A DNA stretch of 64,000 nucleotides, from assembly GCA_963825135.1 (NCBI GenBank), contig CAWGRW010000009.1:1376001-1440000 (forward strand), in the 5' to 3' direction. Made by a program: the position numbers and the translations under genes. Below are positions 58,854 through 64,000 of the stretch, in pieces. The DNA is from an uncultured bacterium. Lineage in GTDB: Bacteria; Desulfobacterota_D; UBA1144; Nemesobacterales; UBA2774. Numbering within the stretch: position 1 is the stretch's first letter; each line of letters begins with the position of its first letter. Below the pieces are notes generated by a model. It saw nothing but the letters and a program-made list of their open reading frames with translations, did no database searches and was not told where the DNA came from.

Positions 58854-59363
58854 TCAATCGCAGGGAACTTCGGTAAGCAATCCTGTTTCAATATCATATA
58901 TAAATCCCGAAACCGTAACGTCAGGAGGGGTCAGGGGATGGTCCCTCAGCCTCTTCACGTCGTCTATTATGCTCTGTATCCTGTCGGTGATAGTCAGCCA
59001 GTTGATGTAATCCCCTTCGCTTGTTTTATAGGATTCTCCTGCTTTTTCCGCCATCATTTCATTTGTGAGGTTCTCTATTCCGCAGCCTGTGTGGTGAATG
59101 ACCAGCCACTCGTTCGTGCCCACGAGTCTGTTGGAGATTATTAGCGACCTGACAGCGTCGTCGCTCGCTCTCCCGCCGGCGTTCCTGACGATATGCGCGT
59201 CCCCCGTTTTCAGACCCGCAAGCCGCATGGGCTCTATGCGCGCGTCCATGCAAGTCAGAATAGCGATTTTCCGCGCAGGGGTTATCCCCATCTTCCCCCT
59301 ATCGCCGAATTCCCTGGCGTATTCCCTGTTAGCGATTAATATTCTTGTTACCGTGTCGCCCAT
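58854..59363 (-). CDS. Beta-class carbonic anhydrase (clade D-like)
   Basis: TCMDAR, RNAGG, HHTGCG. GGAGG before ATG 59363. Confidence 0.9.
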   Translation of the reverse strand: MGDTVTRILIANREYAREFGDRGKMGITPARKIAILTCMDARIEPMRLAGLKTGDAHIVRNAGGRASDDAVRSLIISNRLVGTNEWLVIHHTGCGIENLTNEMMAEKAGESYKTSEGDYINWLTITDRIQSIIDDVKRLRDHPLTPPDVTVSGFIYDIETGLLTEVPCD

Positions 59364-59449
59364 CGCGCCTCCGTTAGAGATCCACGGCGTTGCCGGTCCT
59401 GGATTCCCATACAAATAATTTTTTATAGGTTTTTTTAATACAGTGGTGC

Positions 59450-60565
59450 CTAGTTCAGGAATTCTTTTAAAACGCTGCTTCGCTCGGAACCCGCCAACTT
59501 GGAGAGGGCGTCCTTCTCGATCTGTCTGATCCTTTCCCTGCTGAGGCCGTATTTATCCGCTATCTGTTCGAGCTTGTGGTCGTTATCGTAATCGATCCCG
59601 AACCTCATCTTGAGAACGTCCCTCTCCCTCTCGGACAAAAGATGGAGAGAATTCCGTACCTCTTCGTTTATCGATCTTATAGTCAGATAGAATTCCGGCC
59701 TCTTGGCGCCGGGGTCGGCCGTAATATCCAGATGAGATTTGGAATCCTCATTCCCGGGCAGCAGTTCCAGGGGGACCACGAGATCGTTCCCCTTAAGGAT
59801 CGTGATTACGGCGTCGAGAGGGATATTCACCTCACTTGCTATTTGTTCGGGCATAGCGCTTTTATCGGTATTGCGTTCGAGCTTCGCCTTGGCCCTGTAG
59901 ACCTTGGCTGCCAGCTCCTGGAGATAGACCGGAATCAGGATTATATGGGTCTGCTCCATTACGGCTCTCGACAGAGACTGATGAATCCACCATGATGCAT
60001 AAGTGGAAAACTTGAACCCTTTCGTGTGGTCGAATTTCGTCACCGCTTTCATGAGCCCTATGTTTCCTTCCTGAATCAAATCGGTGAGGGGAAGCCCCCG
60101 CCCGGTGTATTTATTGGCGAGCTCGATTACGAGCCTGAGATTGGACTTGATGAACTTTTCCTGAAAGTGCTTGGACCTTGCAGTATATGATCTGGCGAGG
60201 GCATCGAGAATATGTTCATTCCTTTGCGGGTTCCGGTCACTCGCCCTCGGTTTTTTTTGCAGATGTCCCGCTATTTTTTTTGCCCTGCTTTCGCAAAACT
60301 TTATCTTGGCCGCGAGCACCGCCTCGTCACGCTTGGTGAGAAGGGTCTCATCGTTGAGTTCCTGGAAATAAGCATAAAGAAGTCTGTAATTCTGGTCTGT
60401 TATATCTTTCCCTTTCTTAAAAAACCGGCCTTTTGGTTCTTCCTCCTGCGGTTCCTCTTCTTCATAAGCCGTATTATATTCCTCATCCGAAACGATTTCT
60501 GCGGCAAAGTCCGAATCGTCAAGGCTACTTTCCTCTTCCATATATGCGAGCTGTTTCAGTTTCAT
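59450..60565 (-). CDS. Alternative RpoD-like sigma70 factor
   Basis: NLRLV, DLIQEGNIGLMKAV.KFD, KFSTYASWWI, SRERIRQIE. No region 1.1. Confidence 0.9.
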   Translation of the reverse strand: MKLKQLAYMEEESSLDDSDFAAEIVSDEEYNTAYEEEEPQEEEPKGRFFKKGKDITDQNYRLLYAYFQELNDETLLTKRDEAVLAAKIKFCESRAKKIAGHLQKKPRASDRNPQRNEHILDALARSYTARSKHFQEKFIKSNLRLVIELANKYTGRGLPLTDLIQEGNIGLMKAVTKFDHTKGFKFSTYASWWIHQSLSRAVMEQTHIILIPVYLQELAAKVYRAKAKLERNTDKSAMPEQIASEVNIPLDAVITILKGNDLVVPLELLPGNEDSKSHLDITADPGAKRPEFYLTIRSINEEVRNSLHLLSERERDVLKMRFGIDYDNDHKLEQIADKYGLSRERIRQIEKDALSKLAGSERSSVLKEFLN

Positions 60566-60596
60566 GATATCGCTATTCCCGATACAACCGGAATGA

Positions 60597-60625
60597 TTAG
60601 TATACCTAATATTTAGGTTACCTAA
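60597..60625. promoter_or_regulatory. Tandem palindromic operators upstream of the sigma gene
   Basis: TTAGTATACCTAA (60597-60609) and TTAGGTTACCTAA (60613-60625). Confidence 0.7.
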
Positions 60626-60652
60626 ATAATAATACTAAAAAAAATCATAATA

Positions 60653-61270
60653 TCAATTGAGAGTTTTTTTAAAGTGGGGGCATTCTTTGCAGATTTCTTC
60701 TTCGCTCAAGAGTATGTGAAGGTTTTCACAATAGTGGGGTTTGAGTTCTCCTAAGTCTCTGTCTCTTTTGAAAAAACAACAGTCAGTACATATGTCGCCT
60801 GAAAAGATCAACCCCTTTTCTATGAGCTTATCGGAGATTTTGTGTAAGAGCTGCTCGAGTATTTTCTGTTCCTGGGGCTCGAATTCCTTAACTATTTCTT
60901 CTATCTCGTAGCCTATGTTCTCTATATCCCCGACGACCCTTTCACCCTCGGGCGTGAGAGTTAAATGCACCCTTCTTCTGTCCCCGGGGTCCCTAGATCT
61001 CAATATCAGGTTTTTCTTTTCCAGCGAGTCGATTACACCGCTCGCGGTTGCCGGTGTGCAGGTCAGATACCTGGCTATGTTTCCAATGATGATAGCGTCC
61101 TTTCTCGTATAATTGATGAAGAGGAGGGACTTTACCTGTGCTGGAGTAAGGTGCTCCAGCCTGCTCTTGTCCCAGAATAGGTTCTTTACAGCCTGTCCGA
61201 TATGGAACAGGGTTCTTGTAATCTGTCCGCCTATATTATTCTGCCTGTAAACGGGATCAAAAATAGACAT
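60653..61270 (-). CDS. MarR family regulator with Cys-rich C-terminal domain
   Basis: LTPAQ, DSLEKK.LI.R.RDPGDRR..LTLTPEG; tail CTDCC..HYC..CKEC. Confidence 0.88.
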   Translation of the reverse strand: MSIFDPVYRQNNIGGQITRTLFHIGQAVKNLFWDKSRLEHLTPAQVKSLLFINYTRKDAIIIGNIARYLTCTPATASGVIDSLEKKNLILRSRDPGDRRRVHLTLTPEGERVVGDIENIGYEIEEIVKEFEPQEQKILEQLLHKISDKLIEKGLIFSGDICTDCCFFKRDRDLGELKPHYCENLHILLSEEEICKECPHFKKTLN

Positions 61271-61288
61271 GCAATTTTTCCCTCACAT

Positions 61289-61301
61289 TTAGCATACCTA
61301 A
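61289..61301. promoter_or_regulatory. Third operator copy upstream of marR
   Basis: TTAGCATACCTAA, 18 nt upstream of the marR start. Confidence 0.65.
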
Positions 61302-61388
61302 ACATTTATAAAATTCACAAATGTGGAATATGCAGTCTCTCCGCCTGTCGTGAATACGCAAAGCGGCAATCCGATTCTTTCACTCGCA

Positions 61389-62148
61389 TTAAAGAGGGCC
61401 TTCCGATAGAATCCTTTTCGCCCTCTCGTAGGACTCGACCGTCCCTATGTCTATCGCCTCGCCCTCGGCGCGAATTGCATATATATCGTCATGTTCGGCC
61501 AGATACGATATGAAGTATCCGATCTCGTCCCGCGCGTCGGGAGACGACATGTATCCATGAATGCGCTCGAGCGCTCCGGGTTTCAGAAAGTAAAGCGCTG
61601 GGCATGCAAAGTTTGAGGGCGGGTTCTCGGGCTTTTCATGGAACGCTGTAACGCGGCCATCCCGATCGAGCTCGAGCACACCGGTTCTTCTGAGCCTCTG
61701 CGTGTCTTCAGTGGGGAGCGCCAGGACATAGCTTCTATCGCTGCTAAGGAACTTATCCCAAAAGGGCTTGAGCGGGAAGCGAAAGATGTTGTCCCCCGCC
61801 GCGACAACAGACCCGTCGTTCCGCAGCAGAGAATTTACCGCGAATCCCAGGTCCCCCGCCGCCCCGAGCCTTCTTTCCGCACTGCCGACTCCGTCGTTCA
61901 TTATGTAAAGGCTTATTCCCCGCTCCGTTATCGCGTCCCGACTCGTTTCCGCCCAGGCGAGGAAGTGCTTGAAGAATCGGTCGTTTGTCACGATTAGGAT
62001 TGCGTCCAAACCGCTGAAATCCCGGATTTGCCCGATAACGTAGTCGATGACCGGCTTTACCTCCGACATCGAGCAGCGCCTTCGGGAAATCCTTCGTGAG
62101 CGTACCCATCCTCGTAGCGAAGCCAGCGCAGAGTAGTATCGCGTTCAC
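61389..62148 (-). CDS. Sugar-1-phosphate nucleotidyltransferase, one +1 frameshift at 62056-62058
   Basis: LCAGFATRM..PKALL in one frame, then KPVIDY..AGDN..EKP..DIGT in the next. Confidence 0.85.
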
Positions 62149-63353
62149 AGGAGCCTTAGCCCTTCGTCGGATTCTGCGAAATATACTTTCGCGCTCAGGC
62201 CCGGCTCCGGGTGCCGCGCTTTATATCGGTCCAGCATCTCCGCGGCCGAGTCTTGCGAGAAATCCGTCCTGACAAAAGCGCTGACGGATCCGCCGTATCC
62301 TCCCCCGTTAAGCCTGCTCCCGTAAACCCCCTCAGTCGAGCTCATTATCTCATGCAGTGAGATAAGCTCGGGGCTGCCGATTTCGTAATTAGTGAATGAG
62401 CTCTCGCAGGATTCGTTCATGAGACGCCCGAAAGCGTTCATGTCGCCCCTGTTCCATGCCGCGACTCCCATAGTCACGCGTTCGACTTCCGTAAAGTAAT
62501 GAAGAGCCCTTCTCCTCAGGTCCGCGGGGAGCTTTGCCGATTTTTCACGAAATACTACTTCAGGAATATACGACAGGTTTTTTGCCGATCTCAGCCCCCC
62601 CATAATCCCGAGCAGCCCCGCGGCCTTTCTGCATTCTTCGACGCGTGTGTTGAAGCCCGACGCGGTGAGGTCGCGCGGGATGCCCGAATCTACGATCAAT
62701 ATTTTAAAGTCTTCCCAGTTTTTGGGCCTCGGATAAGCCGCAGTATGTCCGGTAACCGTATCTATGTATAAGAGGCTGTCTTTTTTGCCGTAAACGATCG
62801 ACGTTTGGTCAAGGATGCCGTTTGAGAGCCTCAGGTAATCGTTTTCGATCCTCCTGTCGAGCTCGACATACTCATCCGGCTTTAGCTCCAGATCGTTCAC
62901 GCACGCAAGCGCATAGAGGTATGCGAGTCCCGAAGACGCGGACGAGCTGAGACCGCTCGAGGGGAGAGAACCGGATAGTACGCCCGTGAACCCTCTCACG
63001 GCCCCACGGTACTCGTCGAGCGCTTTAGCGGCCCCCATCGCGTATCTGCCCCAGTCGTCCCTCGCGGGGGATTTGATATTGTCGATGCTGAATTCCGAGA
63101 CTCCGGGATAGTTCATGCTGTAGAGCCTGACTCTGTTATCGACGTTCGGTATGAACGCGAGCACCGTCCGTGCGTTGATAGTCATGCCCAGGACGGGTCC
63201 GCCCTGGTGGTCAATGTGCCCTCCCAGGGGGGAGATACGGTAGGGAGAAATCACTACTCCGAGCTGTGATTCGTCAAAGCTCTCTCTTCTCTTTAAATAC
63301 TCCGCGGTCTCTTCGACTTGTTTTTCCAGGGTGGAGAATTCCATTTTGTTCAT
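62145..63353 (-). CDS. GHMP sugar kinase, plant galacturonokinase (GalAK)-like
   Basis: SPYRISPLGGHIDHQGG, GLSSSA, DRRIENDYL..NGILDQ, HYFTE.ERV, GSRLNGGGYGG. Confidence 0.8.
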   Translation of the reverse strand: MNKMEFSTLEKQVEETAEYLKRRESFDESQLGVVISPYRISPLGGHIDHQGGPVLGMTINARTVLAFIPNVDNRVRLYSMNYPGVSEFSIDNIKSPARDDWGRYAMGAAKALDEYRGAVRGFTGVLSGSLPSSGLSSSASSGLAYLYALACVNDLELKPDEYVELDRRIENDYLRLSNGILDQTSIVYGKKDSLLYIDTVTGHTAAYPRPKNWEDFKILIVDSGIPRDLTASGFNTRVEECRKAAGLLGIMGGLRSAKNLSYIPEVVFREKSAKLPADLRRRALHYFTEVERVTMGVAAWNRGDMNAFGRLMNESCESSFTNYEIGSPELISLHEIMSSTEGVYGSRLNGGGYGGSVSAFVRTDFSQDSAAEMLDRYKARHPEPGLSAKVYFAESDEGLRLL

Positions 63354-63372
63354 CCGCCGTCTCAGTGAACGT

Positions 63373-63999
63373 TCAATCCGGCAGCAGCGAAAAACGCTGT
63401 ATCTCGTTCTGAAGCTGATAGAGGTTGTAATATATCCCCCTTCTCGCAAGCAGTTCCCTATGAGTCCCTGTTTCCGAAATCTCGCCCTTATGTATGACCA
63501 TGATCCTGTGGGCGTGCCTCACGTTCGAGAGCCTGTGAGCGATAATGAGCGTCGTCTGCTCCCGGGCTTCGTTCCTCAGCGCCTTTTGAATATTGCTTTC
63601 GATCCGCGCGTCGATATTCGAGGTCGCTTCGTCGAGTATCAGGAACTTCGATTCTTTTGAAAACGCCTGTCCCAGTGAGACAAGCTGTTTTTCGCCGGAC
63701 GATATGGTATTCCCGTTGGATTTTATCCGGTCGATCTGTACGGCCTTCGAGAAATTGTCGGTTTCGTCATCCGATATATCCTTTGCGAAAAGAAACAGGT
63801 CCTGAAATACCGCCGATATATTCCCTCTCAGGAACTCCGGGCTGAGCTCCCTTATGTCCCTGCCGTCGAAGAGTATCTGTCCCCTGTCGGCATCGTAGAA
63901 TCTGAGTATCAGATTCACTATCGTCGTCTTTCCCGACCCCGTTAGGCCGACCAGCGCTACGGTCTCTCCCGGCTCTATCGTGAAGGATACGTCCCTGAG
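63373..63999 (-). CDS. ABC exporter NBD (MdlB/TM288-like), 5' part outside window
   Basis: GLTGSGKT, ISSGEKQ, LILDEATSNID, IAHR. Confidence 0.88.
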   Translation of the reverse strand, partial: LRDVSFTIEPGETVALVGLTGSGKTTIVNLILRFYDADRGQILFDGRDIRELSPEFLRGNISAVFQDLFLFAKDISDDETDNFSKAVQIDRIKSNGNTISSGEKQLVSLGQAFSKESKFLILDEATSNIDARIESNIQKALRNEAREQTTLIIAHRLSNVRHAHRIMVIHKGEISETGTHRELLARRGIYYNLYQLQNEIQRFSLLPD

Positions 64000-64000
64000 C

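Follow-up and report, generated by a model that had tools for sequence, protein, structure and literature searches.

A galacturonokinase-like kinase and an overlapping nucleotidyltransferase gene as a plausible bacterial uronate salvage pair

We analysed a 64,000-nucleotide stretch of DNA from an uncultured bacterium (contig CAWGRW010000009.1 of assembly GCA_963825135.1, positions 1,376,001 to 1,440,000 of the forward strand), here called the window, whose minus strand encodes a GHMP-type sugar-1-kinase and, overlapping its end, a nucleotidyltransferase. Coordinates are positions in the window. Sequence evidence assigns this bacterial kinase to the galacturonokinase (GalAK) branch of the galactokinase (GalK)-like GHMP kinases, and its coupling to the transferase is conserved in many bacteria, mostly through a 4-base overlap. 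The two genes are a plausible bacterial uronate salvage pair, and we give a probability of roughly 0.6 to the reading that a GalAK-type kinase and its coupled nucleotidyltransferase convert uronate to a nucleoside diphosphate (NDP)-uronate. An earlier reading of the same DNA from its letters alone (the sequence-only reading) had proposed such a pathway.

Bacteria usually obtain uridine diphosphate (UDP)-glucuronate and UDP-galacturonate through UDP-glucose dehydrogenase and a 4-epimerase. In the proposed route, the kinase would transfer the gamma-phosphate of adenosine triphosphate (ATP) onto the anomeric C1 hydroxyl of a free hexuronic acid, most likely D-galacturonate; kinases of the Phe type described below would perhaps also phosphorylate D-glucuronate. 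The translationally coupled RmlA/GalU-type transferase would then join the uronate-1-phosphate to a nucleoside triphosphate, most likely uridine triphosphate (UTP), and the NDP-uronate would be used by glycosyltransferases for envelope glycans. Such a two-gene salvage route would run alongside dehydrogenase/epimerase synthesis; its substrate, its nucleotide and the use made of its product are inferred.

The kinase belongs to the galacturonokinase branch

The kinase gene lies at 62145-63353 (minus strand) and encodes 402 amino acids from MNKMEF; the likelier start is MEF at 63344 (399 amino acids), which matches the start in relatives. The protein matches the Pfam domains GHMP_kinases_N, GalKase_gal_bdg and GHMP_kinases_C, with scores of 50.1 (PF00288), 33 (PF08544) and 39.9 bits (PF10509), all over the cut-offs, which places it in the GalK-like branch of the GHMP superfamily. 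The GalK signature G-R-[VI]-N-L-I-G-E-H-x-D-Y is missing, however, and the kinase reads Y-R-I-S-P-L-G-G-H-I-D-H-Q. Alignment to solved GalK puts YRISPLGGHIDHQGG at the position of GRI/VNLIGEHTDYNGG in the L. lactis and E. coli enzymes, GFNTR aligns to YNER/YNTR of GalK, and DRRIENDYLRLSNGILDQ is also found in the kinase. The motifs quoted in the sequence-only reading, and the absence of the GalK signature, were all as it had described them. All five NCBIfam galactokinase models fell under their cut-offs (NF003705, 208 against 385; NF003006, 197 against 443; TIGR00131, 189.9 against 226.65; NF003472, 179.5 against 499; NF001816, 127 against 509).

A phmmer search of 1.84 billion representatives returned 9303 matches, and the names looked up among them included the galacturonokinases of Camellia sinensis and Tetracentron as well as proteins of the streptophyte algae Spirogloea and Chara. 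The Camellia sinensis galacturonokinase (P0163) scores 243 bits against the window kinase in phmmer and is 39% identical to it over the full length by BLASTP (236 bits). The best solved GalK scores 136 bits, and E. coli GalK is about 29% identical. Likeness to glucuronokinase (EC 2.7.1.43) was confined to 29 bits over 72 residues of P0282, a protein that JGI names glucuronokinase. Of 55 near-invariant columns, one is changed in the window kinase.

Two trees agreed with each other. A FastTree tree was built from 121 rows, namely 113 of 150 representatives (340-520 amino acids), six close relatives, the window kinase and E. coli GalK. In this tree the window kinase and the plant and streptophyte rows share a 96-row clade (support 100, branch length 0.5) that leaves out all 24 rows with the GalK motif, E. 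coli GalK included. A quick IQ-TREE tree of 71 hand-picked rows placed 17 GalK-type rows on one side of a branch (SH-aLRT 99) and the window kinase in a 54-row clade with Camellia and Tetracentron galacturonokinase and Spirogloea. Both trees support the kinship with plant GalAK that the sequence-only reading had proposed, and the kinase clusters with GalK in neither. Within the GalAK-like clade, the window kinase falls in a 21-row bacterial subclade and the plants in a separate one. The plant and streptophyte-alga rows nest with metagenome rows inside a mostly bacterial clade. The clade is large, with several deep branches and motif variants after DHQ, and the signature P-[LIV]-G-A-H-x-D-H-Q runs through all of it; the window kinase carries the GalAK form P-L-G-A-H-[IV]-D-H-Q, but with Gly in place of Ala.

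Existing annotation already half-flags the kinase as a galacturonokinase. JGI names include galacturonokinase for 14 of the 120 homologues listed and plain galactokinase for 11, and the NCBI-derived names for the pair are 'galactokinase family' and 'nucleotidyltransferase family'. A look-up of the kinase in the ESM Atlas returned generic GHMP and galactokinase clusters only. No second GalK-like gene was found in the genome that carries the window.

Conservation of the pair and its uronate context

The GTG start of the transferase lies within the TGA stop of the kinase, forming the GTGA overlap at 62145-62148 (minus strand, read 62148 to 62145) that the sequence-only reading had noted; relatives have ATGA here. 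Further kinase loci were collected with a pattern derived from the clade signature, which found 522 stretches in 185,579 species genomes, 372 of them encoding kinase relatives. Locus counts refer to the best 80 of these 372, which come from Dadabacteria/Thermodesulfobacteriota, Desulfobacterales and their kin, Chloroflexota, cyanobacteria, Deferribacteres and spirochaetes. One locus (L015) was excluded because its contig ends inside the kinase, leaving 79, and counts that need a kinase open reading frame (ORF) use 78, as the ORF caller returned none for L095. The next same-strand gene after the kinase encodes an NTP_transferase protein in 57 of the 78 loci, across several phyla, and 51 of these 57 genes overlap the kinase by 4 bases. 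By tblastn, the transferase occurs somewhere in 63 of the 79 loci.

Kinase and NTP_transferase domains also occur in one predicted protein (P0205). P0197, P0205 and P0211 each join a partial GalAK-like kinase to DctM, NTP_transferase or UDP-glucose dehydrogenase domains; merged gene calls are the probable cause, yet the proteins show adjacency in further genomes. Three cyanobacterial loci (L042, L044 and L048, from Caldora and Symploca) have a Phe-type GalAK-like kinase without the transferase, beside arginase-family and HypA/HypB genes.

Apart from any motif evidence, the genes found with the pair in other lineages lend support to a uronate substrate. At 16 of the 79 loci the pair has uronate isomerase, tagaturonate epimerase, KduI or carboxylate transporters as neighbours (UxaC in 7, UxaE in 2, DctP in 5, DctQ/DctM in 2 and TctC in 5). 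In hexuronate clusters of the Desulfobacterales type, the pair is found with KduI, a KduD-like short-chain dehydrogenase/reductase, PfkB kinases, LarA-like proteins and a small cupin, and the adjoining transporters in Desulfobacterales are of the tripartite ATP-independent periplasmic/tripartite tricarboxylate transporter (TRAP/TTT) types. Two Desulfosarcina-type loci (L046:4395-9461 and L049:5953-9486) carry, in order, UxaC, a GalAK-like kinase, a 291-amino-acid GalU-like transferase and a second GHMP kinase, which is 33% identical to the kinase part of a JGI 'glucuronokinase' fusion. Two uronate-type kinases flanking one transferase might form a unit that salvages both galacturonate and glucuronate through a shared transferase.

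The transferase itself matches PF00483, with 69 bits for the 226-amino-acid 3' piece in the window and 101 bits for an intact relative. Comparison with NCBIfam was made through the intact relative L002, and every equivalog remained under its cut-off (AglF, 88 against 400; rmlA_long, 79 against 320; galU, 47 against 327; MurU, 44.5 against 250; HddC, ManC and GlmU likewise). The best model is AglF, a UTP-glucose-1-phosphate uridylyltransferase, which is weak evidence on the nucleotide. Identity to the transferase domain of the glucuronokinase fusion P0282 is 28% (91 bits), a higher score than the 58.6 bits of the best solved RmlA; a fusion of that kind, from zebrafish, is reported to need UTP (PMC3938481), which likewise bears weakly on the nucleotide. 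JGI names the transferase glucose-1-phosphate thymidylyltransferase, which is probably wrong. Only two longer transferase forms came up, and these say little about fusions.

Approached from the transferase side, a search with the transferase alignment gave relatives in 591 of 601 stretches among the matches listed, a far broader family than that of the kinase, and context was read in the best 80. A GalAK-like kinase ends at the transferase start in 19 of these loci and a glucuronokinase-type kinase in 2. Loci without a kinase most often have UDP-glucose dehydrogenase (12 loci) or NAD-dependent epimerase (12 loci) beside the transferase, which is again weak evidence for a uridine nucleotide.

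Two residues of the kinase had been singled out by the sequence-only reading. The Glu of GalK presumably contacts the C6 hydroxyl and the Tyr of YNxR presumably reads the C4 hydroxyl. At the position of this Glu the window kinase has Gly (codon 45, GGG, 63219-63221, minus strand), which was said to suit a carboxylate. No relative shares that residue: Ala stands there in all 78 related kinases, in the plant proteins and in the nearest protein, P0001 (93% identical). No sequencing run shared more than 0.32 of the stretch's words, and the window was therefore compared with metagenome contigs of relatives from runs X1, X2 and X4, in which uncovered parts carry no meaning. Contigs of all three runs have G for C at 63220, giving codon GCG (Ala). 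The change from Ala to Gly is small-to-small, and no decay of the kinase is apparent from its sequence. Loss of the GalK Glu removes one negative charge near C6, which fits a carboxylate if the Glu assignment that we presume is right.

The Phe of GFNTR, which had been taken as a hint of relaxed selectivity, is present but is not peculiar to this gene. Among the 78 relatives the YNxR position holds Phe in 33 and Tyr in 42, and 3 were unmatched by the pattern. Tyr is found at all 16 loci that have uronate or carboxylate-transport genes nearby, as in plants, and Phe in all Dadabacteria. A change from Tyr to Phe may alter the choice between galacturonate and glucuronate.

The frameshift, the local neighbourhood and alternative explanations

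The transferase gene as a whole occupies 61389-62148 (minus strand) and is split over two frames. The GTG frame holds transferase codons 1-31, and the other 222 codons, from KPVIDY, lie in another frame. Alignment with six relatives revealed one extra base, a T on the coding strand at 62059 within GGAGG[T]AAAGCC, which shifts the frame. It separates a 5' piece (62060-62148; codons 1-29 and two bases of codon 30) from a 3' piece that runs from KPVIDY to the stop (61389-62058). The translation of the 5' piece, MNAILLCAGFATRMGTLTKDFPKALLDVGGK, matches the start of P0294, an intact protein of 252 amino acids, at 100% identity, and the 3' piece is 94% identical to P0294. Contigs of runs X1 and X2, which match the window at 94% over 1283 nucleotides and at 98% over 171 nucleotides, omit position 62059 and restore the frame, and the 171-nucleotide X2 contig has just 3 other differences from the window. 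A homopolymer slip, with an extra A in the AAA run, was considered and rejected, since what the contigs lack is the T that precedes this run.

The loop G-x-G-T-R-x-x-P-x-T reads A-G-F-A-T-R-M-G-T-L-T, with Thr for the usual Pro. This P16T replacement is the only change in 41 near-invariant columns over both pieces. It was rejected as a sign of decay because intact P0294 carries it too. The transferase is not a single ORF in the window; it is whole and free of stops in 8 of the 8 genomes of the genus in which it was found. Among the 9 other genomes of the genus, the transferase is whole in 8 and the kinase present in 9; among the 24 other genomes of the family, the corresponding numbers are 10 for the transferase and 23 for the kinase. 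One Dadabacteria locus (L024, the same as L006, 7209-7392), whose kinase is 79% identical, lacks the transferase cleanly, with 183 bases between the kinase and the MarR gene. Of the loci whose kinase is more than 75% identical to that of the window, it alone lacks the transferase. The coupling claimed in the sequence-only reading stands as a conserved pair, but in this genome, as assembled, the partner is frameshifted.

The pair lies in a same-strand run with genes for an exporter, a MarR-family regulator, a sigma-70 factor and a carbonic anhydrase (all minus strand). The 3' end of an MsbA-like ABC exporter gene (63373-64000; ABC_tran) is directly upstream of the kinase and continues past the window. 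Beyond the window it encodes ABC_membrane (L105), preceded by an N-terminal region of about 180 residues (L105:4-1463, minus strand), and the best NCBIfam model of an exporter relative, MsbA_lipidA, scores 356 bits against a cut-off of 602. This exporter family immediately precedes the kinase in 21 loci, all of the Dadabacteria/Thermodesulfobacteriota type. Downstream of the pair are the MarR-family regulator (60653-61270; MarR, 50 bits) and the sigma-70 factor (59450-60565). The regulator adjoins the pair in Dadabacteria and ends in roughly 50 C-terminal residues that contain several Cys pairs (CTDCC..., C..C); the protein may sense metals or redox state. Its gene is syntenic in Dadabacteria loci. 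Together with tsaD, the sigma factor and ispH, it keeps its place around the kinase, so that what is conserved here is a set of unrelated genes. A promoter and terminator scan of 59300-64000 gave counts not above shuffles (6 against 3.8 and 6 against 4.8) and was uninformative on operon limits.

The genome has further genes for related chemistry. A UDP-glucose 6-dehydrogenase-like gene scores 449 bits to the subfamily model, with TuaD as the best equivalog. UDP-glucuronate is probably available to the organism de novo, in which case salvage would supplement the usual route instead of taking its place. There are four further PF00483 genes, two ManC-like, one GlmU and one AglF/MurU-like beside a DIPPS-like gene. 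At this last place (G000:C9:674824-676689; L103:1498-3364), a 257-amino-acid AglF/MurU-like NTP_transferase is followed by a nucleotidyltransferase-like start and a membrane part. Weak matches to inositol-phosphate cytidylyltransferase and DIPP synthase suggest a compatible-solute pathway there.

Several results weigh against uronate salvage by this pair. The window kinase and plant GalAK fall in different subclades at 39% identity, and its specificity may accordingly differ from that of the plant enzyme. A tblastn search of its own genome with the Desulfobacterales proteins found no UxaC, UxaE, DctP or glucuronokinase-type gene, so that the uronate context is borrowed from other lineages, and a glycosyltransferase using the product was not identified. 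GHMP kinases are missing within 2.5 kb in 59 of the best 80 transferase-family loci; the transferase family as a whole is thus not dedicated to uronates. The transferase of this genome, as assembled, is broken by one extra base, and the transferase was not found in 14 of the 24 other genomes of the family, 13 of which bear the kinase, so the kinase does not depend strictly on this partner. A literature search found plant, animal and review papers only and none on a bacterial GalAK-type kinase, with subscription journals outside its coverage. Some of these points would suit a kinase for another sugar (galactose, a 6-modified or 6-deoxy hexose, L-arabinose or an amino sugar) that leads to another NDP-sugar, its likeness to GalAK reflecting ancestry only. 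The distance from the plant enzyme, the depth and motif variety of the clade, the 11 homologues named plain galactokinase and the UDP-glucose-type context at most wider transferase-family loci all lean that way. We nevertheless consider another sugar unlikely, because other residues take the place of the GalK signature and its Glu across the whole clade, all galactokinase cut-offs are missed, 16 of 79 loci place uronate genes or carboxylate transporters beside the pair, and in L046 and L049 a glucuronokinase-type kinase shares one transferase with a GalAK-like kinase.

A separate question concerns the second step of uronate salvage in this organism. The frameshift could be a real and very recent mutation that leaves the transferase an early pseudogene, and we give this a little less than an even chance. 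The inserted T precedes the AAA run and leaves the homopolymer length unchanged, rpoC is unbroken over 1368 codons, so that the assembly is not riddled with indels (one gene only), and the kinase has its unique Gly at an otherwise invariant site. The transferase was also not found in 14 of 24 family genomes and 1 of 9 genus genomes, and L006/L024 has its 183-base gap at the transferase place; repeated loss of the transferase while the kinase stayed makes a fresh pseudogene plausible. On the other hand, the gene is intact apart from one base, 94-100% identical to P0294, with no excess of change at conserved columns (1 of 41, common to P0294), and the 2.79-Mb contig suggests a long-read assembly, which would be prone to single-base indels. 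The clean remainder of the gene and the length of the contig make a consensus error plausible too. Either one base of the assembly is wrong, or the transferase of this route was lost very recently in this genome. If the kinase product in Dadabacteria bypassed the transferase altogether, its partner might be the MsbA-like exporter, with the sugar-1-phosphate passing to another nucleotidyltransferase or to a lipid or envelope phosphotransferase. The 21 loci with the exporter directly before the kinase, the 13 of 24 family genomes with the kinase but not the transferase and the four other PF00483 genes are in keeping with this. Yet the transferase, where present, overlaps the kinase by 4 bases, arguing for joint expression, the exporter is unlinked to the kinase outside Dadabacteria, the neighbourhood is a block of unrelated genes, and an acceptor enzyme was not identified. 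We regard such a bypass as improbable. Equally speculative is an extension of uronate salvage in which the Phe-type kinases of Dadabacteria, which stand behind an MsbA-like exporter in genomes without the uronate isomerase pathway or glucuronokinase, would be dual galacturonate/glucuronate 1-kinases that scavenge environmental uronates for an outer-membrane glycolipid (e.g., lipid A or core decoration). GalAK would then be an old bacterial salvage enzyme later taken up by streptophytes, not a plant invention.

Relation to known systems

If the uronate salvage reading is right, bacteria have a second route to activated uronates, and a widespread one given the 372 kinase stretches found. Uptake of uronates derived from pectin, alginate or exopolysaccharide would be tied directly to envelope synthesis in Dadabacteria, Desulfobacterota and Chloroflexota, all little-known phyla. 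The plant kinase and UDP-sugar pyrophosphorylase (USP) are used for one-pot synthesis of UDP-uronic acids, and the compact bacterial pair could replace them. The pair is widespread, mis-annotated and directly testable.

Compared with GalK of the Leloir pathway (EC 2.7.1.6; E. coli b0757; L. lactis 1PIE), the window kinase shares the fold family, the Pfam domains and the Arg and Asp positions R39 and D182, which we take to be the GalK catalytic residues. It differs in its replaced signature, its scores under all cut-offs, its place outside the GalK group and its partner, an NTP_transferase instead of GalT. AmgK-MurU, HddA-HddC and Fkp are salvage pairs of a kinase and a PF00483 protein. The present pair resembles them in having an anomeric kinase followed by a short nucleotidyltransferase, and the MurU and HddC models match the transferase weakly; however, those systems have other kinase families or sugars, and the models are far under their cut-offs.

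Plant USP (Sloppy), the enzyme of the second step in plant salvage, catalyses the reaction proposed here, from sugar-1-phosphate and UTP to UDP-sugar. USP belongs to another Pfam family, whereas the bacterial partner is a short (about 255 amino acids) PF00483 protein of the RmlA/GalU type, in which only PF00483 and PF12804 were matched. Plant GalAK is in the same branch as the window kinase, and the two share the signatures E-N-x-Y-L-x-L-x-N-G-I-L-D-Q and, Gly for Ala apart, P-L-G-A-H-I-D-H-Q-G-G; identity to the Camellia protein is 39%. Unlike plant GalAK, the window kinase is bacterial, lies in another subclade, has Gly for Ala and Phe for the plant Tyr in YNxR, and is coupled in an operon to its own transferase. 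GalAK of the Arabidopsis At3g10700 type (EC 2.7.1.44) is described in PMC8636097, and according to PMC4002622 the plant enzyme passes its product to a broad UDP-sugar pyrophosphorylase encoded elsewhere.

The sequence-only reading had held that kinase salvage is known from plants, which is too narrow. A few bacteria carry glucuronokinase genes according to the Arabidopsis glucuronokinase paper (PMC2823444), and PMC3938481 describes zebrafish DrGKUP, in which a glucuronokinase is joined to a bacterial-type nucleotidyltransferase of about 260 amino acids. That paper reports a requirement for UTP; pyrophosphorylase activity of DrGKUP was undetected in a standard high-performance liquid chromatography assay, and that of the Xenopus homologue was unconfirmed too (PMC3938481). 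DrGKUP and bacterial fusions such as P0282 resemble the present pair in combining a uronate kinase with a bacterial-type nucleotidyltransferase, the window transferase being related to that of P0282 as given above. They differ in that their kinase is of the glucuronokinase type and barely alignable (29 bits), and in that they are fusions where the window has two overlapping genes. The zebrafish fusion is the nearest described architecture, with a kinase of a different family.

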